Assembly (NCBI GenBank): GCA_964016885.1
Contig: OZ024740.1
Span: 67,146,001 to 67,210,000 of the forward strand
Direction: 5' to 3'
Length of the DNA: 64,000 bases
Origin: Eledone cirrhosa
Lineage: Eukaryota
Of this stretch, positions 2,727 through 60,355 are shown piece by piece; positions within the stretch are counted from its first letter, which is position 1, and each line of letters starts with the position of its first letter. The translations under genes and the position numbers were made by a program. Under the pieces are notes generated by a model. It did not search any database. It saw only the letters and a list, made by a program, of their open reading frames with translations, and was not told where the DNA came from.

Positions 2727-2791
<65 letters not shown>

Positions 2792-2824
2792 AAAGAATAG
2801 AGGTGTAACACACAAGTTATTATA

Positions 2825-3338: not shown

Positions 3339-3400
<62 letters not shown>

Positions 3401-3612: not shown

Positions 3613-3643
<31 letters not shown>

Positions 3644-3867
3644 AGTCTCTTTGTATGTTGATGTACGCGTTTTTATGTGTGTGTGTATATATATATATAT
3701 GTGTGTGTATGTGTGTGGACCAGTATTTTTCCCCCTGGTAAAATGGTGTACATTATTCGATTTTTTCAGTAAAATCGGTTCTCTTAATAGAACATCAAAA
3801 ATCTTAACAATAAAAGGTGTGAAATGATATTCACTATATATATATACACATACATATATTCACTATA

Positions 3868-3913
<46 letters not shown>

Positions 3914-5524: not shown

Positions 5525-5556
<32 letters not shown>

Positions 5557-5707
5557 GTGAATATATGTATGTGTATATATATATAGTGAATATCATTTCA
5601 CACCTTTTATTGTTAAGATTTTTGATGTTCTATTAAGAGAACCGATTTTACTGAAAAAATCGAATAATGTACACCATTTTACCAGGGGGAAAAAATACTG
5701 GTCCACC

Positions 5708-5746
<39 letters not shown>

Positions 5747-5927
5747 ATACACACACACATACACACGCGTACATCAACATACAAAGAGACTTATATACAC
5801 ACACACACACACACACACTTCTCCGTATAAGACAAAAGCTGAATATATCTTTTGACATGCTAAAATACCCCCCATTGCTTTCAGACACATTCTTAATGAC
5901 CATCCCTGCCACCACGAATTACTCTGC

Positions 5928-5958
<31 letters not shown>

Positions 5959-6029
5959 TTATCTTAATAGCCATTTGACACACATCGCTGCTAACCATTA
6001 TCACAACATCGAACACCTTACTACTACTA

Positions 6030-6105
<76 letters not shown>

Positions 6106-6592
6106 TTGTTGTGAAAGAGTCATTTCTCAATCTTGGCGCAAAACCAATTTTTTATTCACATGACCTCTACCGACCAATCAAAATTGTTTTGACCACAATA
6201 ATTTTTGCAAACACCAAATAACGCTGGAGCCACTTTTTTAACATAAAAACAGTCTTGGCGCAAAATCAATTTTTTACATTCACATGACTTCTACCGACCA
6301 ATCAAAATTGTTTTGACCACAAGAATTTTTGCAACACCAAAGTAACGCTGGAGCCACTTTTTTAACATAAAAACAGGTAGAATTCCCAAAACTAATCAGA
6401 TCAGAGCAAACAGCACGGACACTCTATCTCAAACTTATTTTTGAAAAGCATTTAGAAATGCGCAACCGGTAAAAACTTAAAAACTTAAAACCACAACTGA
6501 ATACTAACCCATACAATCACTAATACTCTTTTATTCCTAATTAAACCATTTTTCAACTGTGAACAATTTGTCAGCATTTTCTATTCCGTTTA

Positions 6593-6598
<6 letters not shown>
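2825..6598 (-). mobile_element. Decayed Penelope-like element with ~1.1-kb inverted repeats
   Basis: 2825-~3940 is the reverse complement of ~5503-6598. A GIY-YIG C-terminus lies at 4064-4390 on the minus strand. (TA)n lies at or near both ends. Confidence 0.75.
4064..4390 (-). pseudogene. PLE GIY-YIG endonuclease fragment
   Basis: YIGQTQNSLRQRMTVHR...PLSEHIDTC...RISKESYFINKYGPRLN. Confidence 0.75.
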
Positions 6599-6657
<59 letters not shown>

Positions 6658-10380: not shown

Positions 10381-11802
10381 ATGGCCGAAGCTTCTTCACC
10401 AAAATTCGAAGGAGGAAAGGGGAAGATAAACTTACAGCTTCCCCCTGCCACTGTCACAGTAGCAGAGGTCAAGAAGAAAGGTCAGCCAGAGGAAGAATTC
10501 TCTCCACCTGTTAACCGACAACTTGACGTTGCCATGGCAACAACCCAAAGAACCAGCAGCAACAGCAACAACAACAACAATGCGACGGACGAAAACAACA
10601 CCAATAACAATAACAACAACAACAAGACCAATAACGGTGACAACAACAACAATGATAACAACAACACCACCAACGACAACAACAACACAAACAAACAAAA
10701 TTTCTCCTTCGCCGAGACGACAAGGAAAACCCTCGACTATCTGCCAGTAGATATAACCAAAACGAAGGAGCTACTGGCAGATGCGAAAAAATATATAGTG
10801 TACGGAGAAAATGGTTCATTCACAATCCATTCCCCCCCGGAACTAAAAAGCCAGAGACTCCTAAACACGGTCATGTTTAGGACAATCTCGAACAAAAGTA
10901 AAAAACCAGCTCAACAATCACAGTGTGAGATAGAGCTGGTTTTAAAAGACGTCATGAAGGACATCACCTTCATTCAGAAGGATAGACTCTACGGGAGTCT
11001 ATCCATTCTCATGAAGGACAGGGACACAGCAGTGAAACTGTCCATCAAACCAATCACATCCACCGCATACACCTTCTACCCTACGTACATGGGTAGAAGA
11101 ACACAAAAAATAAAAATCCACACCATCGTGCCGATTATGGACATATGGTGGGTTTTGACAGGTTTTCTGGACCTGGAGGATGACATGCTGGTGTCCATGG
11201 GAAAGGCATCGGGTGACGCGTTCAGTGGAACGAGCTTCGAACTTGTAGTTCAAATGAGGCCCGAAAGGATCGCCCAGATCCCTGAACGCGTCATACTGGA
11301 TGATCTAACCTTCATCAACATTACCGTTGAGGGTAGACGGCCCTCGTGTTACCTCTGCGGAACCAGAGGTCACCTGAGGGCTGTCTGTCCCCAACTTATT
11401 AAGAAAACCCCAATCCTGCCTACACCACCAACAACTGCACAACCAACACAATCACCACAACTACCACTACAAAAACAACCACCACAGCTCAAACCAAAAC
11501 AAAACAATGTCCAACCCATCCCCTCCACTCAAAAAACAAAAACAATTTCCAAAACACCCGTACCGCAAACACAACCCGAAAATATACCCCTCCCCTCCAA
11601 CGCGGAAGATGACCCTAGTTCGTCGTCAGACGAGGAGGAGCGCTTCCACACAATCAAAAGAAAAAAAAGAAAACACACCTCAGACACACAAATGAAAACA
11701 ACCCCTCCCCAAAACATAACACTGACACCAACACAAAGAGCTCACAACAACAGCAAACAAAAAACACCACACAAAAACAAAAACATGCATACACATACAT
11801 AA
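10381..11802 (+). CDS. Tx1 ORF1 gag-like nucleic-acid-binding protein (same frame continues to 12168 after a probable premature stop)
   Basis: 473 aa; EGRRPSCYLCGTRGHLRAVC zinc knuckle; Asn- and Pro/Thr/Gln-rich tracts. Confidence 0.8.
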   Translation: MAEASSPKFEGGKGKINLQLPPATVTVAEVKKKGQPEEEFSPPVNRQLDVAMATTQRTSSNSNNNNNATDENNTNNNNNNNKTNNGDNNNNDNNNTTNDNNNTNKQNFSFAETTRKTLDYLPVDITKTKELLADAKKYIVYGENGSFTIHSPPELKSQRLLNTVMFRTISNKSKKPAQQSQCEIELVLKDVMKDITFIQKDRLYGSLSILMKDRDTAVKLSIKPITSTAYTFYPTYMGRRTQKIKIHTIVPIMDIWWVLTGFLDLEDDMLVSMGKASGDAFSGTSFELVVQMRPERIAQIPERVILDDLTFINITVEGRRPSCYLCGTRGHLRAVCPQLIKKTPILPTPPTTAQPTQSPQLPLQKQPPQLKPKQNNVQPIPSTQKTKTISKTPVPQTQPENIPLPSNAEDDPSSSSDEEERFHTIKRKKRKHTSDTQMKTTPPQNITLTPTQRAHNNSKQKTPHKNKNMHTHT

Positions 11803-12192
11803 ACACAAAAAACAAAAAAACTGTTAAACATTGTGTACAACAACAATCTAATAAAAACACAAGGGCCTAACTTTACCCAGGCAGGGGATTTCCCCCACCT
11901 CAAAATGATTAAGGCCCCACAGGACACCTATAAAACTTTAAAAAACAATTTTAAAGAGGACGTGGGTCCCCCCTGCGTCGGGCCCATTAACCGCGTCCTC
12001 CTAAAAAACTATCCCACCCCCTCCCCAAACACCCACACAACTCCAAGCTCCCCAACCACACAACACACTGATGCCCCTACACTTCCACAAACCACCACCC
12101 CACCCAACAACCCATCCCCCACCCTAATGGAAATTGTGCAGCCCGATACCCGGGACGCGGAGAGGTAAGTGCCTTTTCTCTTCACCACCAAC

Positions 12193-15100
12193 ATGGCTAT
12201 ACTAAGAGTAGGCTGTTTAAATGCGCGTGGCCTGGGCTCAACTTGGAAGCAAGCAATGCTTCTAAATGACCTCAGGTCACAACGTATAGATGTGATGGTT
12301 ATTTGCGAGACCCGGATCAGCAACGTGCGACAGCTGGCCCCCACCTTTGATGACTTTGAGATGCACGCATCTGGGTCTCGCAATACAGATGGTACATTTG
12401 GACCCGGAGGGTCGACTAGTGGTTCTGGACCTTGGCAGTGGTAAAGGCGGAGCGTTTAGGTTGGTAGCCGCCTACGGCCCTTTCGGGTCAATGCGGCCGG
12501 ACTTCTTCCATCGTCTGGAGACTTTTCTAGGGACGTCCCGCTCCTTGCTATTAGTGGGGGACTGGAATGGTATCCTAGATGCACGCTGGGACTACGTAGG
12601 GGCCTGTCCCGATAGAGAGGGGTGTAATAGCCTCAAAGGGTTAATCGGTCGATTTGACCTGGCCGATAGATATCGACTAGATTTTCCGACTGCGCCAACC
12701 TGGACTTGGGCAAATCGTAGCGGAACATCTAGGTCGTACCTAGATAGGTTCTTAGTTAGAATTAAGGATAAGGACTTTTTAAGTTGTCCAAAAATGCGCA
12801 TGGTTGGCTATTCAGACCACAAATTAGTGACCTGCATGGTCAACCTTGACAGAACTCATAGACAGGGACCCGGTTACTGGAAGCTCAACTTGTCCTTACC
12901 GGCAAGTAAGGCTTACAGGAACCGGATTAGCACTTTAGTTAAGGAGTGGTTGACGGGCGCCATCGTCAACAGCAGGTGGTGGGGATCTCTCAAAAGAGAG
13001 AATAGAGTAGTCTCTATAGAATTTAGTAAGGAGTTAGCCTCCAATAGAAATAGGAAGGAAAGGGAGTTGGTAGATAGTGTAGAAGAGGCAATTAGAAGCG
13101 GCGACGTGGCCAGAGTGCTAGCGTCGAGAACGGCCCTGGGCCAGTTCTTCGACGCGAAACACGAAGGCTGCATCGTCCGAAGCAAAATACGTGCTCTGGG
13201 AAACGAGGGGACCAAAGCTGTTAGCTGGGCCCGCGTGACAGAAGCCAAAAGAGGGAGCAGATCCACTATCCGGTCTTTGCGAGACCAGGTTGGACGGGTG
13301 ATCCTTGAACCTCAGCAGATGTGCGAGGCTTTTCAAAAGCACTTTGCCGAATTGTTCGGAAAGGGCGGGGGGCCGGTTGGGACGTGGACTTCGGTCCATA
13401 CCTCGACGGCCTGCCGCGTCTCTCGGACAGGGAGGCGAAGTCCTGCGAGGAGCCGATTTCAGCCGCTGAGATAGAGGACGTGCTGAGCCAATGCGGCAAA
13501 CGCAAATCCCCGGGGCTCGATGGTCTTCCATACGAACTATATCTAGCTATGCCGGACTTGTTCCCCGAACTCCTCGAGGCGGTCTACTGCAACTGGCGAC
13601 AGAACGGGAGTATTCCCTGTGCTGTGACCAAGGGCGTAGTCACGCTAGTGAGGAAGGACGAGAACAAGGGGGACGATATAAATAATTTCAGGCCCATAAC
13701 TCTGATAAATACAGATTTTGGCCAAAGTGCTAGCAAAGAGGTTGGCGCTTGTCGTGGGCAACCTGGTGGGAGATGCGCAGACATGTGCTATCCCGTCCAG
13801 GTCCATCCACGGTAACCTCCACCTCATGCGATACATCATAGAGAGGGTTGGGAACGAACCCGGCTTTGGTGGGGCCCTGATCAACTTGGATCAATCTAAG
13901 GCATTCGATAGGGTCGACCATGGTTACCTGGATGCGGTGCTAGCGGCGGCAGGCTTCGGACCCGTTTTCAGGGGCTGGATCAATGCCATGTACAGCAGCC
14001 GCATCTGCTCTAGGGTCAAGGTGAACGGCTACCTCTCGGAGCCGTTCGAAATCGCGCGGTCCATCCGACAGGGGTGCCCTCTCTCCTCCCTTCTGTACGT
14101 AGTGACTCTAGAGCCACTGCTGCGGAAGTTGGAGTTGTTGCAGGGCATCCCGTTGGAACCGGGATTGCGGAAAGCGGTGTCAGCCTACGCCGATGACGTA
14201 ACAGCAATGGTGTTGACAGCCTCGGAAATCGGGGCGATCGGCACCTTACTGGAGGAGTACGGAAGGTTTACAGGGGCTAAGCTGAACCGGGACAAGTCGA
14301 TCGGTCTGCAACTCGGCACGTGGAGGGGCAGATCGATGCCCTCCGATGGCGTCGTCGGGCGCTGGACGGAGGGCCCGGTGAAATTGCTCGGGGTCTGGTT
14401 CGGACCAGACCCCCAGGTGGAGAAGAACTGGGGTGAGGTGACGAGCAGGGTGTTTGCACTGACCCAGAAGTGGGCCGAGTGCAAACTGTCACTGAAAGGT
14501 CGGGCGGAGGTGGCGAACACTTATATAGCGTCCGTCATCTACTACCGCCTGACCGTGGTGCCTTGCCCAAGGGAAACCCTCGCCAAAATGGAGCGCGCAC
14601 TCTTCCAATTCCTTTAGAAGAAGCGGGCTCCTATGGTGAGGAGATCCATCTGCTGTCAACACCCTTCGAAAGGAGGGCTGGGGATGCCGTGGCTGATGAT
14701 ACGTAAACACGCATAAAGGCTACGGCACCTTTAGGTATTCCTCTCCGGTCAACCGGTGTGGGCCCCGTTTGTGAGGCGAGCCTTTCCCAGACTCGTCTCA
14801 CTCACCGAGCTGCAATCCTGGGTCAAGCAAAGACCGAGAAAACTGGGCGTCTGGCACACCGAGTGTGCCCAGGCGCTCACGGCTCTCTGGCAGGCGGACC
14901 CGGCTGTCAGTGGAGAATCCACCTCGTCATTCTCTAGAGGGCTGGTGGTTAGCAGGTGCGACGACGCCCTCAGAGAAGCCCTAGGCATGGAGGAAGACGA
15001 ACTGGCCAACCTGTTCGGTAGGACATTCAGCCCGGGACCCATGGATAACTTCCAGAGGTCCCTGGCCTGGCAATGCTACAGAAGGGCTCTGCCCGTTCGA

Positions 15101-15568
15101 GAAAGGCTCTACAGACACGGGCGCCCGGGTAGGGACCCATCGAAAAAGGTCTGTCCCAGATGCGTGTGCGACGAGGAAACCGTTGCACACGCATTGGTAC
15201 ACTGCTCGGGCATTGCCGATCTGTGGGGCTATGTCGAACAACTGCTGTCAAGGGTGGGACCGATCCGGTTGACCACCGAGTCTATTGTAACGATCAAGCC
15301 GCCTCCCCTCTTCAAAAACGAAGGAGAGGTGGTGTTTCTGTGCGTAATAGCCATGGCGAAAGAGGTTGTATGGTGGACGCGTCTGAAAGGACTGAGGTCA
15401 GACACCTTTCTCTCTGGCCAACAACTGCTCCGTTTCTTCCGATATCATTTCGGAAGAAGGATCAGGATGGAGAGAGAGGTGCTGCACCCCAGCCGTTTCT
15501 ATGAAAGATGGGTGAAAGTGGCGAGAATGGCCCGTGTGAATGGGCCTTCACTGTACATCAGACTATAG
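12193..15568 (+). pseudogene. Tx1 ORF2 (APE endonuclease, reverse transcriptase, C-terminal zinc finger), disrupted
   Basis: LNARGL, GDWN, YLDRF, SDHK, KSPGLDG, FRPITL, LDQSKAFDRV, RQGCPLS, YADD and CPRCxxxxETxxHxxxxC. Several frameshifts and stops. Confidence 0.92.
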
Positions 15569-27294: not shown

Positions 27295-30292
27295 TGTAAG
27301 GCATACAAGCCCTTGGACTTTGCCCAGTGAAGGGGAAAGAATAATATTTGGGCCTTTTGGCCCAAAAGACCCAAATATTTCAACTCTTTTACATTTAAAA
27401 AAAATATAAAAAAAAAAAAGAAATGGCTGAGTCACGCCCCCCCCCCCCCCCCCAGCGGTGCATTATAGTTGCATCTCAGCACAAACCAAAAGGACAGCTT
27501 TAATTCAACAAGCAGATGTCGAAGTCGCGCTGAGTTGCATCAGAAAAGACACCGAATACATAGAGAGGGGGCAGACAATACGGCACCATTTCGGTGCTGT
27601 TCAATTCAGAAGCCCTCGCTATGAAACACGCTATGACTCCTTGCAAAACCAGCAAGGTCATAATGTACCCCTCCCACATGGGAAAAAGAACGGATCGTTT
27701 CCGCATTCCCAGAATCCCACCAGGACTTGACATGCGGTGGCTTCTGGGATGTGTGATTGTGGAGGGGATGGATACAGTCCCGATAGAAGTGACAAGAACG
27801 GCCAGAGAGGACTGGTCCGGGGTTGACCTGGAGATACTTCTTCAGATCAGGCCCGAGAATGTGAAGACAACTCCGGACCACATCCGCTTTCAGAATGGGA
27901 CGGTCATTCACATTCTGACCGTGGGCAAAAGGCCGCATTGTTTTGTTTGTCGGCTGCATGAGGCGAAAGTCATCCGGTCTGGATGGTCTGCCCTACGACC
28001 GTTACGTAAATATGCGAAACTTTTTCTCCATTCTTCTCGAAGCTCTAAGCTGGCAGCAGAACGGGAGTATTCCCAGTTCCGTGAGCCGGGGCGTAGTGAC
28101 GCTGATGAGGAAAGACGAGAACAAGAGGGACATATTAGACAATTTCAGTCCCATAACTCTGCTCCACACAGAGTTTAAGATTTTGGCCAGGGTGTTAGCG
28201 AAGAAGTTGGCGCTTGTCGTCGGGGATTTGGTTGGGGAGGCGCAAACTTTCGCAATCCCAACCTGGTCCATACACGACAACCTCCACCTAATGCGATACA
28301 TCATAGAAAGGGTTGAGTATAAACCTGGCTTCGGTGGGGTTATGATCAATTTAGATCAATCGAAAGCATTTGATAGGTTCAACCATCGGTACATGGAGGC
28401 TGTCCTCAAGGCGGCTGGCTTCGGCCCCGTCTTCAGAAGCTGGATCGATGCAATGCACAGCGGCACCTGCTCGGTGGTCAATATTAATGGCCAACTCTCG
28501 GAACCGTTTATGGTCTCCCGATCGGTCCGTCAAGGGTGCCCTCTCTCCCCACTTCTGTTCGTATTGACTCTCGAGCCTTTAATGCGGAAGCTGGAGCTGT
28601 TGCAGAGCATTCCGCTCGAACCGGGACGCGGATAGGCTGTGTGGGTTATGCGGACGACATCACCGTGATGGTGTCGGACACCTCAGAAATCGAGGTGGTC
28701 GGCAACTTATTGGAGGAATATGAAAGGTTGACGGGAGCAAAACTTAACCCGGAGAAGTCGGTGGGCTTGCAACTCGGCACCTGTTGAGGCAAGTCCATGC
28801 CGTCCAACAGCGTCGTTAGGCGCTGGACGGACGGACCGATAAAGTTGCTCGGGGTTTGGTTCGAGCCAGACCTCCAGGCGGATAAGAATTGGGACGACGT
28901 GACGGGCAGGGTAGCCAGTCTCACCCAGAAATGGGCTGCGAGAAAGCTATCACTGAAAGGTCGGATAGAGGTGGCGAACGCGTACATCTCGTCCGGCATC
29001 TACTACCGTCTGACTGTCGTCCCTTGCCCCCGTTCGCGCCTCGCCATCTCGGATCGGCTCCTCTTCAAATTATTGTGGAGGGGTCAGGTTCCGCTGGTGA
29101 GGAGGTCCATCTGCTGCCAGCACCCTCTACGTGGAGGGCTGGGCATGCCGTGGCTAATGATGATCAGACACGCGCTCAGGCTGCGGCATCTCCAGATATT
29201 CTGCCTAAACGGTGAACAGGTGTGGTCGCCGTTTGTCAGACGGGCCTTTCCGCAGCTGGTCTCTTTGACTGAGCTGCAGTCCTTTGTCAAGAAGAGACCG
29301 AGACTGGGTGACTGGCATCAGGAATGTTGCCAGGCACTCACTGCCCTCTACCAGGCGAGCAATGCGGTCAGTGGAACTTCCACTCTCGAGTTCTATAGAG
29401 AATTTGTGGTGGGCAAATGCGACGACGCACTTGGAGAGGCTCTGGGAGTCGACGAAGTCAAACTAACCAGTCTGTTCCGGAGGACTTTCGAGCCGGGGAC
29501 GATGGATAATTTCCAAAAATCCCTCGCTTGGCAGTGCTACCGGGTTGGGGGGGGGGGGGGGGGTACCGGTTGGAGATAAACTCTATAGACACGGAAGTGA
29601 TGTCAGACGTATCTGCCCGAGATGCGCGCAGAGCGACGAAACCATTCTGCACGCACTTGTCCAGTGTCCGTGCATTATTGACTTGTGGAGATATGTCGAA
29701 CAGCTGTTGTCGCGTGTAGAACGGATCCGGCTATCGGCCGAGTCCATAGTGAAGATCGACCCGCCGCCTTCCTTTGGCCAGGAAGGGCAGGCAATTTTCC
29801 TCTGTCTGGTGGCAGTAGCGAAAGAGGTTTTTTGGTGGACGAGGTTGAAAGGACTGAAGAGAGACACTTTTCTCTTCGGCCAATCCCTCATCAACTTTTC
29901 AAGTTTCACTTGGAAAGGAAGGTGAGGGTGGAGAGAGAAGTGCTGCTCACCAGTACATTTGCCGAAAGGTGGGTGAATGTGGCGAGAATCGCCCGTGTGA
30001 ATGGGCCTTCTCTGGTCATGCACCTGTAGGTGGGTAAATTTGAGGAGGAGAGGGGTGCTCTTCCAGGAGGCTCTCGAAGAATCGGGCCGTTTAGGATTGG
30101 TGGGGTACCTGAGCAAACCTTGGATTTTCATCCCCCCTATTGGGAAATTTTTCTTGTATTTTTCTTGTTACTTTGTTATTGTGATTCATATTGTTTACTC
30201 GATTTTTCTGTAAAACCCCACTGTCCCAGTCTTTTGTATTGTCCCCTAAATGTCGGCCCTTATGGCCAATAAATGAAATCATTATTATTATT
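27295..30292 (+). mobile_element. Internally deleted Tx1-clade LINE (ORF1 remnant joined to ORF2 RT; APE domain missing), (ATT)n tail
   Basis: ORF1 GKRPHCFVC is joined at ~27950 to ...SGLDGLPY. LDQSKAFDR, RQGCPLSP, YADD and CPRC follow; stop at 30029, then AATAAA and (ATT)n. Confidence 0.88.
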
Positions 30293-31541: not shown

Positions 31542-33533
31542 AATGGCTAATTCACCTCTGCACGAAGCAGCTGAAAGCGTTCCTCACAAATGAACACCTC
31601 ACACCGACACCACCATTGTAAATGTTACTACGTTTGCCAACACCAAAAAAAATATAAGCACTAGCAATATTTTAAATTTGTCTCAGGCAGACATTCATTT
31701 CCCGCCATTACCAATGACTGCAGGTGTTAAAGTCTCCACCACCACCACCACCACCGCGACAACCACCACCACCACCACCACCGCGACAACAGAAACAAAA
31801 GAAGAAAAAAATAAATTAACTCGTGATGTCGAAATGAAATCAAGCAAAATGGACTCTTCCCCACCAAAGACGACTGACGTCACCACCACCACAACTGAAA
31901 CTAAAATTAATATTAACGATAGCAACAACAACAACAATGACATTATAACCCCCCCCCCCTCAGTTTCGCCAGAGTAGCAAAACAGTTCGAAGCATTTAGG
32001 GTAACTCAGGAGGATTTAGAAAATGCCAAACAAATGGTAAAGAAAGATGGGTACAGGGTCAGCCTCACCCCCCCACCTAATAAAATGGAGCATCGGCGCC
32101 TATGCACCATGTCGTATAGAACAATAAATGTAAAATCGCGCCAAGTGGAACGGGCATCCGAGTCCCAAATCCAAAAAGCTTTGGGACATGTGTGGGCAAG
32201 AAAAACCCACATCAGACGTGGGCAAAAGTATGGAACCGTGGATGTGTTCTTTGAAACACCAGAGGAGGCTAGAGAACACTCCATGGCCCCATTAAAAAGT
32301 GACGACTTCACACTCGTCCCAAGCTATTGTGGCCAGAGACTCGTAAAGATCAGGGTGACCCACGTTCCACCGGCCATCGAAATTCCCTGGCAAATAGCGG
32401 CTGTCCTCGCCGGCATCGAAGCCAACACGAAAATAATAGCAATAGCAAAAGAAAAGCAGGAGAACTGGTCCGGATCTGGGATGGAGCTCCTGATCCAAGC
32501 GGACCAAAAAAGCATTGAGGAGATCCCAGAGGTAATAGACCTCACTGACGGCAGCCACCTCACGGTAATTGTCGAGGGCAGAAGACCTAGGTGTGTCGTT
32601 TGTGGTGAAGGAACCCACCTAAGGGCTTTCTGCCCTCAGGCTAAAAGGTTGAGGCAAACCTCTCCTACCCACCCCAGTGACACAACCATCAACACCACCA
32701 GTAGCAGAGATGGCAGCAACAACTGTAGCAGCAAAAACAAAAGCAACTATAACAGCAACAACCCCAGCAACAGTAGCAAAACCAACACCACCACCACCAC
32801 CAGCAAAACCAACACCACCACCACCCAACGCTTCAGAACTAGCACCAGCGCCTACACCATCCACCACGCCACAACCAAAACTAACGGCTGTGGAGGATTT
32901 TCCACTCCCCGGCCTATCACAACTGGAGACAGATTGTGACGACGAGGAGTGGGAAACGATATCCGGAAAAAAAAAAGAAACCAAAAAAGAAAAAATTCTC
33001 TTCCTTCCCCCTCCAAAAACAAAATACAGAGGGAAACAAATAAATTAAGAAACAAGAAAGTTAGGACAGATATGCCACCATCCACACCAGCATCACCAAC
33101 CCCATCAACCCAAACACCAACACCATCACCATCATTAACCCCAACACCACCATCACCTACACCACAAAAGTCACCAAAATGCGAAACAGAAACAAACCCA
33201 CAACAAACGCAAACAAAACAAAACAACCAAAACGATACACACTAGACAGCATTAAATTTGAACAACAAGCAATTATTACACTACATCCAACACAACACCA
33301 GCATCACAGAAAAAGACTACACAACAATCCCAAAATTCACACCACCTCCACACATACAAATCACTCGCATCACACAGAAAACGTACATGACACTAAAACA
33401 AAAATTCCCCAAAGACATCGGAGACTTCCGACAAGCACTCTCCAGGAGGATTTATAAGGACATCCTTCCTGAGGAGGCCACAAGCAGTGAAAAGGATGGA
33501 AAAACCGTCCTTCCCCTACGAGAAGTAAGGTAA
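31542..33533 (+). pseudogene. Tx1 ORF1, frameshifted
   Basis: EGRRPRCVVCGEGTHLRAFC knuckle and Thr/Pro-rich tracts, spread over several ORFs (31678, 32034, 32677, 32949, 33258). Start position approximate. Confidence 0.75.
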
Positions 33534-33567
33534 GTGGTCTTTCCCATCTTTTCCACTCCTTTTCAAC

Positions 33568-36500
33568 ATGACCTCACTCAGAATAGGCAGCATAAATGCG
33601 CGTGGCTTGGGGTCGTCTTGGAAGCAGGGCCACCTGCTCAACGACCTCAGGTCACTAAACATAGATGTAGTGGCCATCAGCGAGACCAGAATCTCCGAAG
33701 CACAGGCTTTCGCACCGATCTTCGGCGGCTACGATGTGTACGCATCACCCAGCCGTCCGGGATCGGGGGGAGGAGTTGCTGTGCTTTTTCGGAGAGGTTT
33801 GGATCTTGCCATACGGGCCATCTTCCTGGACCCAGAAGGTAAGTTGGTGTTGCTAGACGTGACCAGCGGAGACGGGCAAGCTTTCAGGTTAGTGGCCGTT
33901 ATGCCCCGACAGGAGCAGGGCGGCCTGATTTCTTCCGGCGTCTGGAGACCTTTCTTGGAACTCCCGCTCTTTAGTGTTAGTTGGCGACTGGAACGGGATC
34001 TTAGATGCACGCTGGGATTGTGTGGGATTAGTGGATAGGGAAGGAGGGTGCAAGAGTCTAACCAACCTGCTCAGACGTTTTGAACTGTCTGACAGGTACC
34101 GAATGGATTTCCCGAATGTACCAATGTGGACTTGTACAAATCGCATAGGGTCATCCAGATCATATCTAGATAGAGTATTCTGTAGGGAAATAGATAGGTC
34201 TAGCATAGGCTGTCCACAATTCAAGATAGTCAGCTACACGGACCACAAATTCGTGATCTGTGTGCTTGACTTAGATAGGCTTCATAGACGAGGACCCGGC
34301 TACTGGAAGCTAAACGCGTCCTTACCAGCGCGCAAGGCCTACAGAGACCGGATTAGCGAACTAGTTAAGCGGGCGTTGACGAGGGCCATCGTCAACAGCA
34401 AGTGGTGGTTTGCTCTGAAAAGAGCAATTAGAATAGAGTCCATTAGGTTTAGTAAGACTTTAGCAATAGAGAAAAATAGAGCAGAGGGAGAATTAGTTAG
34501 AAAATTAGATGAGGCGCTTAGCAAAGGCATCGCGACCGACGTACTTGCGGCGAAATAGGCCCTTGACCAATTCTTCAATGCAAAGCACGAAGGCTGCGTT
34601 GTCAGAGCTAGGGTGCGTGCTCTCAGACACGAGGGGACGAAAGCCGTTCAATGGGCCCGAGTGGCGGAGGCGCGTCGTGGCAACAAAGCCACGATCCGGT
34701 CTTTGGTGGACCACGACGGGCGCATACTACTCGATCCCGGGCAAATGTGTGAAGCTTTTCAGCGACACTTCGCTCAACAGTTCGGGGGCAGTGGCGGGCC
34801 GGATCGAGGAATGGACTTTAGTGTCTACCTCGACGGACTGCCGCGGCTTTCGGCCACTGAGGCGGAGTGTTGCGAAAAGCCGATAACAACCGCTGAAGTA
34901 CGGGATGCAATGACTAGTTGCACAAGGGGTAAATCGCCTGGTTTAGATGGTCTGCCCTATGAACTTTACGTACAAATGCCAAACTTGTTCGGAGGCCTCT
35001 TGGCGGACGTCTACTGCAACTGGCAACAAAACGGGAGAATTCCCAGCTCTGTGAGCCGAGGAGCGGTGGCGCTGCTGAGAAAGGATCCGAACAAGGGGGA
35101 TAACATAGATAATTTTAGGCCCATAACTCTGTTAAACACAGAGTTCAAGATTTTGGCCAAGGTGCTAGCAAAGAGGTTGGCGCTTGTCGTTGGTGGTCTG
35201 GTGGGAGAGGCACAGACATACGCCATTCCCGACAGATCCATTCACGACAACCTCCACCTCATGCGATACATCGTAGACAGGGTAGCTAGGGAACCTGGCA
35301 CGGGTGGGTCTTTGATCAATTTAGATCAATCGAAAGCCTTCGATAGGGTCGACCATCGTTACCTAGCGGCAGTCCTGAGGGCGGCTGGCTTTGGGCCCGT
35401 CTTCAGAGGCTGGATCGCTGCCATGCACAGCGACATCTGCTCTGTAGTGAGAGTGAACGGTCACCTTTCGGAACCGTTCAACATCATGCGCTCGGTCGGC
35501 CAAGGATGTCCCCTCTCGTCCCTATTGTACGTATTGACTCTCGAGCCATTACTGCACAAACTGGAGACGTTGAGGGGGTCCCGCGCGAACTAGGATGCGG
35601 AAGATCCGTGTCAGCATATGCCGACGATGTCACCGTAGTGGTGTCGAACGCCAAACACATCGAGGCGATCGGCACTACACTAAGAGAATACGAAGCGGTG
35701 ACAGGAGCAATGATCAAACAGGAAAAGTCAGTGGGCCTGCAGCTCGGCACCTGGAGAGGCAGGTCCATGCCGTCCAACAGCGTCGTCGGGCGCTGGACGG
35801 ACGGATCAGTTAAATTGCTAGGGGTCTGGTTCGGTCCAGACCTCCAGACGGACAAAAACTGGGACGAGGTGACGAGCAGGGTGGCTTCTCTCACCCAGAA
35901 ATGGGCCGAGAGGAAGCTATCCCTGAAAGGTCGAGCGGAGGTGGCTAACGCGTACATGGCGTCCGTCATCTACTACCGCCTGACCGTCGTACCTTGTCCT
36001 AAGCCCCGCCTGACTGCGCTGGAGCGTTTGCTCTTTCGCTTCTTGTGGAAGGGACGCGCTCCGATGGTCAGGCGGTCCATCTGCTGTCAACAGCCGCTAC
36101 GTGGAGGGCTGGGCATGCCGTGCCTGATGATGCGCAGACACGCGCTCAGGCTACGACATCTCCACCTCTTCCTCGACGGTGATCAGGTGTGGTCGCCGTT
36201 TTCTAGACACGTTTTTCCCCAGCTCGTCTCCTTGACGGAGCTGCAGTCCTTGGTCAAGCGAAGACCGAGAGGGAGCGCTTGGAGGCTGGAATGTCTTCAG
36301 GCGCTCACAGCCCTCGACCAATCGGGCAATGTGATCGGTGGAAACTCCACCTTGGCGTTCTATAGGGGATTAGTGGAGGGGAAGAGCGACGACGTACTTG
36401 GAGAAACTCTAGGCGTCGACGAAAATCAACTAGCTAATCTCTTCGGAAGGACTTTCGGGCCGGGGCCTATGGACAACTTCCAGAAATCCCTGGCCTGGCA

Positions 36501-36984
36501 GTGCTACCGGGGTGCTTTGCCAGTTCGGGATAAACTTTACAGGCATGGAGGTGCCGTCAGCCGGGCATGTCCGAGATGCGCACAGGGCGACGAAACCGTC
36601 CTGCACGCACTCGTCCAGTGTCCGAGCATTTCTGACTTGTGTGTTTATGTCGAACACCTGCTGTCACGTGTAGGACGGATCCAGCTATCAGCTGAGTCCA
36701 TCGTGAGGATTGCCCCGCCATCGTACTTTAGCCGGGAAGGGCAGGCAGTTTTTATCTGTCTGGTGGCCATGGCGAAAGAGATAGTATGGTGGACACGTTT
36801 GAAAGGGCTGAAGACGAGCACTTACCTCTTCGGTGATGCCCTGATTAACTTTTTCAAATTTCATCTGAAAAGGAAAATCAGGGTAGAGAGGGAAGTGCTC
36901 TCTTCCCAGCATTTTGTTGAAAGATGGGTGAGAGAAGCAAGTATGGCCCGAATGAATGGGCCTTCTCTGAGTATGTGTCTGTAA
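33568..36984 (+). pseudogene. Tx1 ORF2 (APE, RT, zinc finger) with a few frameshifts and stops
   Basis: INARGL, SETR, GGVA, GDWN, YLDR, TDHK, KSPGLDG, FRPITLLN, LDQSKAFDRV, QGCPLS, YADD and CPRCAQGDETVLHALVQC. Confidence 0.93.
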
Positions 36985-37226
36985 ATTAAAGGTGGAAAAC
37001 TGGGAGAGGGCACTTGCCCTGGTGGTCAGGGCCACTGTGGTCTTTTAATGGGCTTTCTCCACAAATGTCCCTTTGAAGTCTCCCCCCTATTGCGGAATTT
37101 TTCTTTGTTATTTTATTTCAACCTCTGTTTTTTTACACGCAGAAATGCCCATTTGTACCGTCCTGTATTGTCCTGTACTGTCCTTAATGTCTATTTTATG
37201 TGAACCCTTGTGGTTAATAAAGAAAA

Positions 37227-48093: not shown

Positions 48094-48233
48094 CTGTAAT
48101 CATCAAACATATGAAACGTGGTGCGGTATCTCGCGAATATATACATGTATATATACATTTTTGTTTTATATTAACATGACATCTAATGGAATAGAACATT
48201 TTCATTCGTATATATAAATATATATACATATAT

Positions 48234-50676
48234 GAATATAGACATAGAATATTCGAAAATATTCTGTATGTTTATAATAAACATTTTGAAGACCTAATCG
48301 CTATAGAATAGAATACGTCACGTATTACAATTAGATTCTCGATAAAAGCAAGGGAAGTAATCTACGCGTTTCATTCTTGTTAGAAATCATCAGGACCACA
48401 TATCCAGTGCTTTTATCGAGAATGACACAGCTAGAGACTTATAGAATACTTAGCTGTGTACAGGAACTGGTTTGAAAGAGCGGTTGCCGGTCCGGCAGAA
48501 ATTAGAAATTGGAATAAATGCTCTGAAATAGCGATATATATGTGAATATAGACATAGAATATTCGAAAATATTCTGTATGTTTATAATAAACATTTTGAA
48601 GACCTAATCGCTATAGAATAGAATACGTCACGTATTACAATTAGATTCTCGATAAAAGCAAGGGAAGTAATCTACGCGTTTCATTCTTGTTAGAAATCAT
48701 CAGGACTACATATCCAGTGCTTTTATCGAGAATGACACAGCTAGAGACTTATAGAATACTTAGCTGTGTACAGGAACTGGTTTGAAAGAGCGGTTGCCGG
48801 TCCGGCAGAAATTAGAAATTGGAATAAATGCTCTGAAATAGCGATATATATGTGAATATAGACATAGAATATTCGAAAATATTCTGTATGTTTATAATAA
48901 ACATTTTGAAGACCTAATCGCTATAGAATAGAATACGTCACGTATTACAATTAGATTCTCGATAAAAGCAAGGGAAGTAATCTACGCGTTTCATTCTTGT
49001 TAGAAATCATCAGGACCACATATCCAGTGCTTTTATCGAGAATGACACAGCTAGAGACTTATAGAATACTTAGCTGTGTACAGGAACTGGTTTGAAAGAG
49101 CGGTTGCCGGTCCGGCAGAAATTAGAAATTGGAATAAATGCTCTGAAATAGCGATATATATGTGAATATAGACATAGAATATTCGAAAATATTCTGTATG
49201 TTTATAATAAACATTTTGAAGACCTAATCGCTATAGAATAGAATACGTCACGTATTACAATTAGATTCTCGATAAAAGCAAGGGAAGTAATCTACGCGTT
49301 TCATTCTTGTTAGAAATCATCAGGACCACATATCCAGTGCTTTTATCGAGAATGACACAGCTAGAGACTTATAGAATACTTAGCTGTGTACAGGAACTGG
49401 TTTGAAAGAGCGGTTGCCGGTCCGGCAGAAATTAGAAATTGGAATAAATGCTCTGAAATAGCGATATATATGTGAATATAGACATAGAATATTCGAAAAT
49501 ATTCTGTATGTTTATAATAAACATTTTGAAGACCTAATCGCTATAGAATAGAATACGTCACGTATTACAATTAGATTCTCGATAAAAGCAAGGGAAGTAA
49601 TCTACGCGTTTCATTCTTGTTAGAAATCATCAGGACCACATATCCAGTGCTTTTATCGAGAATGACACAGCTAGAGACTTATAGAATACTTAGCTGTGTA
49701 CAGGAACTGGTTTGAAAGAGCGGTTGCCGGTCCGGCAGAAATTAGAAATTGGAATAAATGCTCTGAAATAGCGATATATATGTGAATATAGACATAGAAT
49801 ATTCGAAAATATTCTGTATGTTTATAATAAACATTTTGAAGACCTAATCGCTATAGAATAGAATACGTCACGTATTACAATTAGATTCTCGATAAAAGCA
49901 AGGGAAGTAATCTACGCGTTTCATTCTTGTTAGAAATCATCAGGACCACATATCCAGTGCTTTTATCGAGAATGACACAGCTAGAGACTTATAGAATACT
50001 TAGCTGTGTACAGGAACTGGTTTGAAAGAGCGGTTGCCGGTCCGGCAGAAATTAGAAATTGGAATAAATGCTCTGAAATAGCGATATATATGTGAATATA
50101 GACATAGAATATTCGAAAATATTCTGTATGTTTATAATAAACATTTTGAAGACCTAATCGCTATAGAATAGAATACGTCACGTATTACAATTAGATTCTC
50201 GATAAAAGCAAGGGAAGTAATCTACGCGTTTCATTCTTGTTAGAAATCATCAGGACCACATATCCAGTGCTTTTATCGAGAATGACACAGCTAGAGACTT
50301 ATAGAATACTTAGCTGTGTACAGGAACTGGTTTGAAAGAGCGGTTGCCGGTCCGGCAGAAATTAGAAATTGGAATAAATGCTCTGAAATAGCGATATATA
50401 TGTGAATATAGACATAGAATATTCGAAAATATTCTGTATGTTTATAATAAACATTTTGAAGACCTAATCGCTATAGAATAGAATACGTCACGTATTACAA
50501 TTAGATTCTCGATAAAAGCAAGGGAAGTAATCTACGCGTTTCATTCTTGTTAGAAATCATCAGGACCACATATCCAGTGCTTTTATCGAGAATGACACAG
50601 CTAGAGACTTATAGAATACTTAGCTGTGTACAGGAACTGGTTTGAAAGAGCGGTTGCCGGTCCGGCAGAAATTAGA
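48234..50676 (-). repeat. 310-bp tandem array, left arm (~7.9 copies), each with a minus-strand hammerhead; non-LTR retrozyme-like
   Basis: GACATAGAATATTCG at 48241, 48551, 48861, 49171, 49481, 49791, 50101 and 50411. TACGCGTTTC...TCATCAG occurs in every unit. Confidence 0.95.
48335..48423 (-). ncRNA. Type I hammerhead ribozyme (first of 8 minus-strand copies, period 310)
   Basis: Reverse complement of the motif at 50979-51067. Confidence 0.85.
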
Positions 50677-52134
50677 TAAAAGCACTGGATATGTGGTCCT
50701 GATGATTTCTAACAAGAATGAAACGCGTAGATTACTTCCCTTGCTTTTATCGAGAATCTAATTGTAATACGTGACGTATTCTATTCTATAGCGATTAGGT
50801 CTTCAAAATGTTTATTATAAACATACAGAATATTTTCGAATATTCTATGTCTATATTCACATATATATCGCTATTTCAGAGCATTTATTCCAATTTCTAA
50901 TTTCTGCCGGACCGGCAACCGCTCTTTCAAACCAGTTCCTGTACACAGCTAAGTATTCTATAAGTCTCTAGCTGTGTCATTCTCGATAAAAGCACTGGAT
51001 ATGTGGTCCTGATGATTTCTAACAAGAATGAAACGCGTAGATTACTTCCCTTGCTTTTATCGAGAATCTAATTGTAATACGTGACGTATTCTATTCTATA
51101 GCGATTAGGTCTTCAAAATGTTTATTATAAACATACAGAATATTTTCGAATATTCTATGTCTATATTCACATATATATCGCTATTTCAGAGCATTTATTC
51201 CAATTTCTAATTTCTGCCGGACCGGCAACCGCTCTTTCAAACCAGTTCCTGTACACAGCTAAGTATTCTATAAGTCTCTAGCTGTGTCATTCTCGATAAA
51301 AGCACTGGATATGTGGTCCTGATGATTTCTAACAAGAATGAAACGCGTAGATTACTTCCCTTGCTTTTATCGAGAATCTAATTGTAATACGTGACGTATT
51401 CTATTCTATAGCGATTAGGTCTTCAAAATGTTTATTATAAACATACAGAATATTTTCGAATATTCTATGTCTATATTCACATATATATCGCTATTTCAGA
51501 GCATTTATTCCAATTTCTAATTTCTGCCGGACCGGCAACCGCTCTTTCAAACCAGTTCCTGTACACAGCTAAGTATTCTATAAGTCTCTAGCTGTGTCAT
51601 TCTCGATAAAAGCACTGGATATGTGGTCCTGATGATTTCTAACAAGAATGAAACGCGTAGATTACTTCCCTTGCTTTTATCGAGAATCTAATTGTAATAC
51701 GTGACGTATTCTATTCTATAGCGATTAGGTCTTCAAAATGTTTATTATAAACATACAGAATATTTTCGAATATTCTATGTCTATATTCACATATATATCG
51801 CTATTTCAGAGCATTTATTCCAATTTCTAATTTCTGCCGGACCGGCAACCGCTCTTTCAAACCAGTTCCTGTACACAGCTAAGTATTCTATAAGTCTCTA
51901 GCTGTGTCATTCTCGATAAAAGCACTGGATATGTGGTCCTGATGATTTCTAACAAGAATGAAACGCGTAGATTACTTCCCTTGCTTTTATCGAGAATCTA
52001 ATTGTAATACGTGACGTATTCTATTCTATAGCGATTAGGTCTTCAAAATGTTTATTATAAACATACAGAATATTTTCGAATATTCTATGTCTATATTCAC
52101 ATATATATCGCTATTTCAGAGCATTTATTCCAAT
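50675..52134 (+). repeat. 310-bp tandem array, right arm (~4.7 copies), inverted relative to the left arm
   Basis: CTGATGA at 50699, 51009, 51319, 51629 and 51939. Confidence 0.95.
50979..51067 (+). ncRNA. Type I hammerhead ribozyme (representative plus-strand copy), predicted cleavage after GTA at 51039
   Basis: ATTCTCGATAAAAGCA..GTGGTC-CTGATGA-T-TTCT-AACA-AGAA-T-GAAAC-GC-GTA-GATTAC..TGCTTTTATCGAGAAT. Confidence 0.85.
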
Positions 52135-52164
52135 ATACATATATATATATATGAATAAATAAAT

Positions 52165-52824
52165 AAAAAATTTCACTCTACATGGCTGAATACAATAAAG
52201 GTAATCTGAGTTTTTAAATGTGATCTGTGTTTAATAACAATAGTCGATTCGTTTGCAATTATCCAACAAGCCTCATTTTTAAAGCCATGTCAGTAGAATG
52301 GACCCTTTATTCTTGCTCTTGTGTTGGCATGTAAGCAGAACTGCAGACACTACTGTTTCTGGATGCTTGTTTGCATAATTGCAAACGAATAGAATAATAT
52401 TATTAATATTCGAAAAACTCATATTACATTTATTGTATTCAGCCATGTACAGCGAATTTTTTTTTTTTAAATTTGAATATGGCAAAGACGGCCATTGATC
52501 GCTCGTATACAGGAAACTGACTGGCTAGTCTGCTGATATGCAAATCTGGCTGATCAGTGGATTTGCTAATATGCAGATCTGAGTGATCAGCCAGTCTGCT
52601 AATATGCAAATCAGGCCGACCAGCTCTGACAGTTGGCAGGTGGACAGTGAACTGTACTGATGAAGGTTAATAACCAGAAACATTAGTGTCTGCAGTTCTA
52701 TTTACATGCCAACACAAGAGCAAGAATGAGGGGCTCTTTCTACTGAAATTGCTTTAAAAATGAGGCTTGTTTGCATAATTGCAAACGAATGGAATATTAG
52801 TATTAACATTCAAAAAGTCAGAAT

Positions 52825-52830
<6 letters not shown>
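52165..52830 (+). mobile_element. Retrozyme-like element: ~400-bp unit with terminal direct repeat and inverted partial copy
   Basis: GCTTGTTTGCATAATTGCAAACGAAT at 52365 and 52765. 52165-52362 is inverted relative to 52674-52830 and 52420-52470. Confidence 0.75.
52649..52698 (+). ncRNA. Type I hammerhead ribozyme motif
   Basis: GAACTGTA-CTGATGA-A-GGTTAATAACC-A-GAAAC-ATTAGT-GTC-TGCAGTTC, with distal stem I GTTGGCA/TGCCAAC. Confidence 0.8.
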
Positions 52831-52982: not shown

Positions 52983-53050
<68 letters not shown>

Positions 53051-53099
53051 CGGCGATGAATTAGTTTTGCGAGGTTTTTTTTATATGAAATCGTGTGTC

Positions 53100-55205
53100 G
53101 AAACAAATATTGTTATACTGTGAAAAGGTGTATGGAGATGATCATTGAGAGTGAGGTGGAGTTCTGCGACGTCGACACAGACGAACTGGGCCTCCTACTT
53201 AGACTTACCTACGACACTGACTACCTAGACAGCCATGACCTTAGACGTTTCTGCCCTAGTAGACCTATAAGAGGTAGACCCCCCACCATAACCTCAATGG
53301 CAAAAGAAACTACCATGGGAAGGTGGATTGGGTGGACCAAAGCTATACGGACCCCCCAAAACAATGATCAGGTAAGAAAAATGGTCGCACATGCAATAGG
53401 GGCTAGTATCAAAACTACCCTAAAGGGCCACATATTTAAGTTCAACGAGAAGATCTACACTCAAAATGAGGGAGCAGCCATCGGCGTCAGTATAGCTGGT
53501 GATGTTGCCAACCTTTTCATAGTATGGTGGGAAAGGAGACTTAAAGATCTCCCTAATGAGAGCTCCATAGACCTCATCATGTACTCTCGTTAAGTAGACG
53601 ATATCAATATAGTTATAAGAACACCCCACTAGAGAGCACTAACACGTTTGATTTAGAACGTAGCACGATGGAAAGCATCCAGCAGATAGCTAATTCCATA
53701 CACCAGAGTATAACTGTAACTATCGACTTCCCTTCCAAACACCCTAACAATAGACAACCTGTATTAGACACAGAACTCTGGATTAACACTATAGACGAGA
53801 GAGCCCAAATTCTCCACTCACACTATGCTAAACCCATGGCCTCTAAATACCTGATACTCAAAAACTCAGCAATGTCCAGTAGTGCTAAGTTTAATATTCT
53901 GATAGCAGATTTGGTACGAGTGATGAAGAATGTGTCCCGCATGTGCAACCCAACAGAAATGGAAAGATACATCCAACACTTCATCAACCGCATGCAGTTC
54001 TCTGGCTACAACCAAAGAGACAGAGTTAGAGTATACGAAGGAGCCATGGAGAAGTATAAGACCCTCATAGAACTGGACATGAAAGGAATTTACCCATAAT
54101 ACAGGAGCAAATCATGGAATAGCTTAGATAGGGCTAGACATAAGATAGGGAAAGCCACCTCATGGTACGACAACAAGAGATACCAGAGTGTCATGTTTGT
54201 GGACGCTACCCCTGGAGGGAAATTAGCTAACCAGTGTAGAAAGGCCCTGAGAAAGACCGACTTACAAATAAAGGTGGTAGAAAAGCCAGGTGACCATAAA
54301 ATCCCTGATCAGCAAAACCTACCCTTTTAAGAAAACCCACTGTACCAATAGGAAATGTATCATATGTAAGGTGAACCCCCGGATAAACTGTAAAACTAGA
54401 AACGTAGTCTATAGCATAAGATGTACAGAGGGTATTTGCAGAAACATGACAACAACATACATAGGTGAGACAGCTCGTAGCATAGGTGAAAGGATAGACC
54501 AACACTGGGGGGGGGGGGGACTAAAAGGACGAAAAAACGGATCAGTACTATACGAACATGCTAGACAACAACATGTCGGTAACATAGACAACATAGAAAT
54601 TAGAATAATATCTAAACATAGAAATGACCCAGCAGATAGGCAAATCAGAGAGGCCAGTGAAATAGAAATTAGAAGACCAAGGCTAAACAGAAAGAATGAA
54701 TGGAATAACAACAACACCCAAACAAACAACACTGACCTAAGAGAAGTATAAATAAGTAAATAAAATAAAATAATTAAATAAATAAATAAATAAATGTATA
54801 CATACACAAGCACAATAACAACAAGCACATAAACACACACTAGTCACCCATCACACATCATACAAAACACTATACACACATGCAAATAAATGAATAAATA
54901 TATAGACAGTCTGAATAAAAATGGCGTAGACATACAATACAACAGGAGGAAAATATAGCACCACTGACGATGTTGCAGATGTGCAACGAAAGATTTATGA
55001 TAAACTATATATATGTGTTTGTGTCTATATTGTATCTGTATTATTTTTGACCGTCGGTCAGTCAATGGCAACATTGAGGACCGAGTAAGTTAGATTACCG
55101 ATATAAAAGACACAGAAGCGAGAAGCGAAATCCAACCATAGAGTGAGTGTGTTCTGTTATCAATTCTGGCGATATTACACAAATATGACCCTCCCCAAGT
55201 ATAAC
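53100..55205 (+). mobile_element. 5'-truncated Penelope-like element (RT + C-terminal GIY-YIG) between (TA)n tracts
   Basis: Coding remnants plus a 3' non-coding terminus. Its end ATATGACCCTCCCCAA recurs at ~10108. Confidence 0.88.
53120..54751 (+). pseudogene. PLE reverse transcriptase-GIY-YIG ORF, disrupted
   Basis: FKFNEKIYTQNEGAAIG, YSR*VDD, PVLD, HYAKPM, CTNRKCIIC, NVVYSIRC...YIGETARSIGERI and IREA...PRLN. Confidence 0.9.
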
Positions 55206-58600: not shown

Positions 58601-60355
58601 AAGCTAATTCACCTCTAGGGGTTGTATCGATGAACATTGCACACTGGTATATATTGCTATCATACCATGAGTTTATTCTATTAGCCTTATTCCTAGTTCT
58701 TTCTATTCTATTCCAAAATGTGCTCCTATACAAGGGGCAGGTCCCATTTGTGTCATTATTTACCATTTTTTCCATTTGGTTCTGGCTCATCTATACACTC
58801 TGATTTTATCTTTCTGATTGTAAGCAGAGAACTGCATACGGTGGATGAAGTGTTGTATCTGTCTCTCTAGTTCTTCGGGGTTGCACATGCGGGACGCGTT
58901 TTTCATCACCCGTACCAAATCCGCAATCAGTATGTTGATTTTGGTATGGTCCGAAACAGCTGAGTTTCGGTGGATCAGGTATTTGGAAGTCATGGGTTTG
59001 GCATAATGGGAATGGAGGATTTGTTTTTTGTTTTTAATTGTTTCTACTTTAGGCACAAGGCCAGCAATTACCCAGTGCATTACTGGTACTTTATTTTATC
59101 GACCCCGTAAGGATGAAAGGCAAAGTCAACCCCGGAGGGATTTGAACTCAGATCGTAATGGGACGTAAATATGCTAGAAACAGGGCGTCCGACCCTCTAC
59201 CAATACTACCAATCCACCGCATCTTTTTTGTTATTAATGGCATCTAACCAGATCTCTGTGTCTAGTACAGGTAATCGATGGTTGGGGTGTTTACTTGGGT
59301 AGTCTATAGTAACTCTAATACTCTGGTGGATGGATTTAGCTATTTGCTGGATGCTTTCCATTGTGTTTTCTCTAATTCCTGACTGTTCTCTAGTGGGGGT
59401 GTTTTAACTACGATGTTTATATCATCAACGTAGCGGGAGTACATTATCAGGGTTAAGCTGTCTTCTAATTGTTCTTTAATTTTAAGTTTAAGTCTACTGT
59501 CCCACCATACCATGAATAATTTAGCTATGTCGCCTGCAATGCTAACACCAATAGCTGCTCCTTCCTCTTGGGCATATGTTTTTCCATTAAATTTGAACAT
59601 ATGTTCCTTAAGGGTTAATTTTATGCTGGCCCCCACCGCATGTGCAATCATTTTCTTTAGTTCATCGTGGTTTTCGGGTGTCTGTATGGCTCTGGTCCAC
59701 CCGTTACATCTATCTGTGTGGGTTTTCTTGGCCATTGAGGTAATGGTAGGTGGTCTGCCTCTTGCTGGTCTTGTAGGGCACAGGTTGCTAAGGTCATATG
59801 TGTCTAGTTAATTATTACTATAGGTAAGTTTAAGTAGGAGTCCCAGCTCACTGGTATCAATCCCACGGAACTCAACATTGCTCTCACTGATCATTTCTAC
59901 GCAAAATCCCCGTCAATAGATGGATACAGGGACACAACATCCATACTACCTATTATGCAGTTTGTTAGGTCCCTAGATCGGTTAATCTCGCCGATTCCGC
60001 TGAGGAGGTCCTCCATGCTGTCACATATGAAGTATGACAGTCTGTAGTTACTACCAATGTTAGCTCCACAGACTGGCCGTGTTGGTGGTCCCGTGACAGG
60101 GTCACTGCCTGTGTTATGATCTTTTCGAAGCCCATACAACTCTGGCACGCCATTGTTCCAGGTCTGGAAGTTGTTGGCAGTCCTTTTGTTGGGCTGCATT
60201 ATATTTGTCCACATAACCATATGGGCATTGAGGACTTTTTCTCAATCCTCATGCTCTTGTGGTGTTACTTCTCTTGTGTTAGTGATGTGGGTTTGCAATG
60301 CCTGGATGTAGTTTGGCAGACTGTCAACCGACATTCTGCCAGACTTGTCTGTTGG
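58600..60355 (-). pseudogene. Penelope-like RT fragment (related to 53120-54751), interrupted by a SINE
   Basis: PELYGLRKDH, PTRPVCGA, GSMDVVSLYPSID, EEGAAIG, YSRYVDD and HYAKPM. Confidence 0.88.
59035..59220 (-). mobile_element. CORE-type SINE nested in the PLE
   Basis: Homologous to 21827-22007; splits the PLE frame. Confidence 0.82.

Follow-up and report, generated by a model that had tools for sequence, protein, structure and literature searches.

Introduction

Metazoan non-LTR retrozymes are dispersed arrays of tandem, non-coding units of 150-450 bp, with low GC content and one type I hammerhead ribozyme per unit. A circular RNA template and mobilization by Penelope-like elements (PLEs) have been proposed for them, and their target duplications exceed 4 bp (PMC7229834; bioRxiv 10.64898/2026.07.22.740005). 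The preprint derives the arrays from local amplification of PLE ends (bioRxiv 10.64898/2026.07.22.740005). Both the enzyme that moves animal retrozymes and the origin of the inverted ends and one-sided tail of Penelope are stated to be open across PMC7229834, PMC8557442, and bioRxiv 10.64898/2026.07.22.740005.

PLEs that bear an endonuclease (EN) carry an inverted, 5'-truncated copy beside a 30-40-bp tail, which is often present at one end only (PMC8557442). They insert into microsatellite or AT-rich targets, with duplications of 8-10 bp in some copies (PMC8557442, PMC3846280), and non-autonomous head-to-tail multimers occur among them, as in MRC1 of Chlamys (PMC8557442, PMC3846280, PMC11167929). 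A purified PLE starts reverse transcription (RT) at two internal sites that bound the tail, cuts and extends both DNA strands, and is predicted to form a dimer; in vitro, the start site was alike on both strands (PMC11167929). In twin or dual priming of L1, two cDNAs from the two cut strands end up inverted to each other, with short microhomology and a single duplication; the second cDNA starts at an internal site that varies, and there is no overlap between the arms (PMC2837659).

Here, we describe an inverted hammerhead array in a 64-kb stretch of DNA (hereafter the window, meaning the whole 64,000 nt analysed) and its relatives elsewhere in the genome. By the features that can be read from its sequence, the element fits the non-LTR retrozymes, with the insertion anatomy of a PLE. 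It shares with metazoan retrozymes the type of unit, the dispersed arrays, and a duplication longer than 4 bp, and with PLEs the AT-rich target, the short duplication, and the multimers. Unlike PLEs, the retrozyme has no ORF, both of its arms comprise multiple units, the two-armed form is nearly obligatory (115/124 arrays), and there is no palindrome at the junction. Unlike in L1, both starts are fixed, 32-34 nt apart, the arms repeatedly cover the same sequence, and there is no poly(A). In contrast to the local amplification proposed in the preprint, the arrays look as if they had been inserted as ready-made multimers, and a search of 24 loci from two PLE families revealed no homologous PLE end. 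Inverted two-armed arrays, the tail, and fixed paired ends are absent from the main texts of PMC7229834 and bioRxiv 10.64898/2026.07.22.740005, and our searches of an open-access library turned up neither two-armed retrozyme arrays nor twin priming by PLEs.

Results

Structure of the array in the window

A preliminary description of the window, made from the sequence alone, had reported an array that flips polarity at a 2-nt microhomology, with the RNA 3' ends pointing outward into TA-rich flanks. Tandem Repeats Finder placed two 310-bp arrays that meet at 50675-50676, and base-by-base comparison agreed: the GA at this site fits either arm. The left arm (7.9 units) and the right arm (4.7 units) are arranged head-to-head and are bordered by TA-rich DNA at both outer ends. 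The right arm, 50675-52134, shows no differences from the 310-bp unit in the ribozyme sense (+), and the left arm, 48233-50676, repeats the right-arm unit in reverse complement, with one internal difference, at 48707. The 87-nt asymmetric spacer and the pairing of about 1.46 kb were likewise reproduced, since the closest inverted pair, 49128-50587 and 50675-52134, is 100% complementary over 1,460 nt, with 87 nt in between. As described, the junction falls within the 16-bp distal stem I: the right arm begins at unit position 1, in the 5' strand of that stem. The preliminary description had not mentioned a 12-bp target duplication (48222-48233 = 52133-52144) around the whole insertion. The features are as follows.

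48222-48233, no strand: left copy of the 12-bp target-site duplication, identical to 52133-52144; its C interrupts the TA repeat
48234-50676, minus strand: short-end arm, 7.9 units with 8 hammerhead cores; presumed first templated base, unit position 184
48707, no strand: lone unit with the family-majority allele (A at unit position 21), not mirrored in the other arm
50588-50674, no strand: unpaired 87-nt spacer, which simply reflects the different unit positions (222 and 1) at which the arms start
50675-50676, no strand: head-to-head junction with 2-nt GA microhomology, also found at another locus (L059) on a different haplotype
50675-52134, plus strand: tail-end arm, 4.7 identical units with 5 hammerhead cores; presumed first templated base, unit position 218, followed by AT common to the target
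50979-51067, plus strand: one complete type I hammerhead, read from the sequence, with 16-bp distal and 6-bp proximal stem I
51009-51015 and 51030-51034, plus strand: hammerhead core parts CUGAUGA and GAAAC, respectively; 2-bp stem III within a palindrome
51039, plus strand: predicted cut after GUA
52099-52132, plus strand: 34-nt 'tail', unit positions 185-218, at the right end only
52133-52144, no strand: right copy of the 12-bp target-site duplication

The target of this insertion was a TA tract adjoining an older head-to-head repeat at 52160-52830. The older repeat, which adjoins the array on the right, is built on a unit of about 400 bp and shows a hammerhead-like motif at 52657; there are 2,374 candidate places for it in the genome, and the best copies are 78-87% alike.

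The unit and its predicted ribozyme

The unit is 310 bp long, has 34% GC, and is non-coding, with no frame of at least 100 aa listed within the array. It thus belongs to the tandem units of about 150-450 bp, below 50% GC and without an ORF, that characterize non-LTR retrozymes, and lacks the ORF with RT plus GIY-YIG of an autonomous PLE. A type I hammerhead motif can be read in 13 units of the window array: CUGAUGA occupies unit positions 25-31 and GAAAC positions 46-50, the GUA cut is predicted after position 55, and positions 305-10 pair with 68-83 in the 16-bp distal stem I. Rfam at gathering thresholds gave no hit in the window; the Hammerhead_HH9 model matched weakly (17.7 bits, E=0.079, under the cut-off of 52). 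Because the 2-bp stem III lies in a palindrome, we presume that the predicted cleavage would need a dimer. PLE-type hammerhead variants reportedly cleave as dimers, according to the title of one study. In all features testable here the unit fits non-LTR retrozymes, for which self-cleavage and a circular RNA would be predicted.

Variation within the family bears on the ribozyme. Variants that are fixed array-wide preserve the base pairs of the ribozyme in 8/8 cases versus 7/24 for variants in single units (p=0.0006), so propagation likely passes through an RNA in which the ribozyme fold is selected. None of the 34 array-wide variant types falls in the catalytic core (about 1.3 expected, which is not significant alone).

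A young dispersed family of two-armed arrays

The 3.0-Gb genome contains 1,056 exact tail-end junctions, that is, at least 1,056 insertions of a dispersed family, and 14,783 exact matches to an internal 36-mer of the unit. We fetched 120 stretches: 20 by unit match, 97 by tail end, and 3 others. The 97 all come from contig 1, among the first 100 tail ends listed there, and one long array accounts for two of them. Both orientations were present in 115/124 arrays, namely 59/63 in the first set, which includes the window, and 56/61 in the second; the remaining 9/124 were single-armed. In the two-armed arrays of the first set, the RNA 3' ends always pointed outward. Since most loci had been selected by the tail end, only the opposite end is a free test at such loci; 18 of the 20 loci selected independently of the ends were two-armed. 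We conclude that the flip is the normal form of this young repeat and that the window junction is ordinary in its family.

Of two near-duplicate arrays (L071), one was left out when junctions and haplotypes were counted but retained in the 63-array and end-type tallies. The two are near-identical, share the same junction, lie on opposite sides of an N gap, and are probably an assembly duplication. At L154, one array is nested within another of different haplotype, so that the repeat can serve as its own target. Sister families with units of 319 and about 306 bp, 68-85% alike, were found at L049:4-602, L056:4-273, L088:4018-4518, L093:1-457, and L099-L128. They retain unit positions 114-225 as well as a long distal stem of other sequence (stem judged by eye), and this conserved block, 114-225, is a candidate enzyme-binding signal. 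By eye, the 319-bp sister retrozyme family ends at the two homologous sites; no PLE frame was attached to it in 30 loci.

Fixed, unlike outer ends and the target site

All arrays in which both ends could be read had one long and one short end, never two alike (105/105; 57/57 and 48/48 in the two sets), and divergent end pairs taken from two independent pattern lists gave the same result (40/40). The long end is unit position 218 plus AT, with a few extending to 221-227; the short end is position 184 in 62/101 arrays and 186 in 39/101. The resulting offset of 32-34 nt amounts to a tail at one end only, which matches the one-sided 30-40-bp tail described for PLEs (PMC8557442). The flanks end or begin in AT at 99/101 and 100/101 sites. 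Target duplications were visible in 10/101 arrays, six of them exactly 12 bp, against 48/10,100 in a null of mismatched pairs. At the 10 sites with an impurity no more than 12 nt from the end, identical 12-mers were present in only 4, and four impure sites lacked a 12-mer.

The family combines what marks a PLE-type insertion: a head-to-head inverted copy, a one-sided tail, and a TA-repeat target with a short duplication. The earlier attribution to PLE-mediated insertion is supported by this layout, with its tail of 32-34 nt and its duplication of about 12 bp; autonomous PLEs are arranged alike, both in this genome and in print (PMC8557442, PMC3846280).

Central junctions across the family

Of 112 junctions, 84 were flush and 28 had extra bases. 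In 8 of these 28, at least 10 nt of the extra bases matched the unit; some of the inserts probably reflect nearby substitutions. The mean overlap was 2.13 nt versus 0.75 for random junctions, and 48/84 flush junctions overlapped by at least 2 nt versus 18% expected (p ~1e-15). A single 2-nt overlap is weak evidence by itself, because 18% of random junctions reach it. The arm starts were spread across the unit (chi-square p=0.19), with no enrichment at the ribozyme cut (5 vs 5.1 expected), a mild one in distal stem I (33/224 vs 23.1 expected, p=0.024), and no preference for small loops (offsets of up to 15 nt in 13/112 vs 11.2 expected). The position of the window junction recurred once, at L059, on a different haplotype. 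As junctions are distributed over the whole unit, neither the location in stem I nor the 87-nt spacer, both noted in the preliminary description, is supported as special: the former is mostly chance, the latter of little meaning, and the GA overlap is typical. The junctions of two loci, L051 and L042, are complex: the switch is repeated or there is an internal jump, which suggests repeated template jumping during joining.

Haplotypes and lengths of the arms

Thirteen haplotypes are in use at 11 diagnostic sites. The two arms of one array agreed in 99/101 cases, whereas arms of different arrays agreed in 1,415/10,100 (14%); the two exceptions were the nested insertion (L154) and an array with a mid-arm switch (L073). 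Single-unit variants were mirrored in both arms of two arrays only (L045, L082). These mirrored variants and the mid-arm switch are not predicted by a monomeric circle.

The short-end arm was longer than the tail-end arm by more than one unit in 31/112 arrays and the reverse held in 52/112, seven arrays being cut at the edge of the fetched stretch. Variants recur at intervals in long arms, which reach 45 units (L085-L086, L063, L064). This periodicity, a sign of either multimeric templates or satellite-like growth of the inserted array, implies that arm lengths were partly altered after insertion in such long arrays (L063, L064, L085).

PLEs in the same genome

A young PLE family with a 784-aa RT + GIY-YIG frame showed the same layout as the retrozyme in those 9 of its 16 loci that had both ends in view, and its tail is about 40 nt. 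Many intact copies of it exist in the genome. The window itself contains a head-to-head copy at 2788-6600, set in TA repeats, whose tail of about 40 nt is confined to the left end. A second PLE-like family is represented by broken copies at 53050-55205 (+) and at about 58787-60241 (-); the former is flanked by TA repeats on either side and includes, at about 54964, a minimal hammerhead motif. Elsewhere this second family has frames of up to 1,304 aa, without a meaningful Pfam hit. No sequence shared with the unit was found in the second family (8 loci) or in the 784-aa family (16 loci).

Discussion

A two-fork model and its alternatives

We consider it probable that a PLE-type RT/endonuclease uses the two ends of a staggered cut as primers on one RNA circle, and that the products are then end-joined. 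Transcripts of an array would self-cleave and circularize. The enzyme would cut each strand of a TA repeat, with a stagger of about 12 nt to judge from the duplications. Each 3' end, in AT, would prime at unit position 218 or at 184/186, where the arrays are observed to end. Both cDNAs would then circle the RNA and halt at near-random points, consistent with the multimers and with the spread of arm starts. Finally, the cDNA ends would be joined through the 0-7 nt of microhomology or the short inserts seen at the junctions, followed by fill-in along a presumed repair route. The rolling-circle template named in the preliminary description gains indirect support, in that the arms are homogeneous multimers whose starts are not at the cleavage site. 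A purified PLE has equal start sites on both strands (PMC11167929), so we infer the strict complementarity of the ends from genomes.

The preliminary description left the choice between twin priming and template switching; the data favour the former and speak against switching by fold-back. Fold-back or self-priming, in which a single cDNA, or an antisense template, folds over and serves as its own template, has been put forward for head-to-head Penelope copies (PMC3846280), and it would account for the shared haplotype as well as for the joining of L056 via the 16-nt stem I and of L203 via 7 nt of stem I. A copy made in this way, however, is at most as long as its template, yet either type of arm exceeds the other by more than one unit (31 and 52 of 112), and small hairpin loops are not in excess (13 vs 11.2 expected), which makes it very improbable. 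Dual priming, with two RNAs, one for each cut end, an asymmetric PLE complex, and one dominant donor locus per cell, would yield an equal head-to-head layout with free arm lengths and would not need two enzymes on one 310-nt circle; it has been named for L1, where the authors were unable to distinguish it from twin priming (PMC2837659). It is unlikely, given that the arms match in 99/101 arrays despite 13 haplotypes and 14% agreement between loci; this agreement and the strict rule of one long and one short end would both require extra assumptions. Twin priming might also have used a multimeric template in place of a monomeric circle, either a circle of several units or the multimeric transcript of a donor array, linear and uncleaved. 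The mirrored variants of L045 and L082 and the mid-arm switch of L073 are in line with such a template, and for a purified PLE uncleaved RNA is the main substrate and ribozyme cleavage is dispensable (PMC11167929). Most single-unit variants are unmirrored, however, and 34 variant types are fixed array-wide, as expected from one amplified unit; donor arrays are two-armed, yet only 2/63 daughters have more than one internal break; and selection on ribozyme pairing suggests that the ribozyme matters. A multimeric template is thus quite unlikely.

Origins outside reverse transcription fare worse. Nested insertion into an array does happen (L154), but an inversion at the DNA level after insertion, or two independent back-to-back insertions, should hardly be entertained when a single duplication encloses the whole structure, the haplotypes match, and the outer ends are always complementary in type. 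The preliminary description had named support by single chimeric fold-back reads alone as what could undo it. The window junction was indeed not bridged among the contig pieces listed from four runs (X1, X2, X3, and X13). X1-X3 are three runs of one sample in which the position-21 allele of the window is nearly absent, so they may represent another individual and provide no test either way. They do contain head-to-head joints at other unit positions, one of which matches the assembled L034 (1/15 joints listed). Distinct unique DNA flanks each side of the structure, with a target duplication, and a read fold-back cannot yield two different fixed outer ends in 105/105 arrays. The fixed paired ends, the duplication, and the flanks exclude an artefact at the level of the family, and for the window an assembly error is extremely improbable.

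Beyond the two-fork circle itself, two-armed insertion may be the normal PLE reaction, with a dimer, two fixed start sites, and one RNA, so that a retrozyme circle would carry two forks on a 310-nt ring; for this generalization we see the case as evenly balanced. If this holds, the arrays would be a natural record explaining the PLE tail and inverted ends, and would reveal a route of ribozyme circles into animal genomes. With its haplotype marks and more than 1,000 insertions, this young family distinguishes between models that the L1 data had left undecided, namely one or two RNAs, and twin priming or fold-back.

Double-stranded RNA and editing

With 14,783 units, the family adds at least 4.6 Mb of near-perfect inverted repeat to the genome, a large possible source of double-stranded RNA. 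A read-through transcript of the window array, if made, could pair over 1,460 nt. On the RNA strand, array-wide changes comprised 11 A>G versus 4 T>C (p=0.026), whereas single-unit changes comprised 21 versus 26. This excess is consistent with template editing, but selection for G-U pairs would account for it too, because 6/11 A>G changes lie in ribozyme stems. The ADAR context is weak, with a 5' U in 6/11 A>G changes versus 39% in the background. Through the arrays, A-to-I edits of the circle may also become heritable as A-to-G changes, a reading that is confounded by pairing selection.

Other repeats

Further hammerhead motifs occur in other repeat families, some as inverted pairs, in the window at 18269 and 61834 (-) and at three other loci (L094, L130, L143). 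Several broken LINE copies with endonuclease- and RT-like frames, recognized by eye, lie in the window at 10381-15568, 27500-30170, and 31941-37044.
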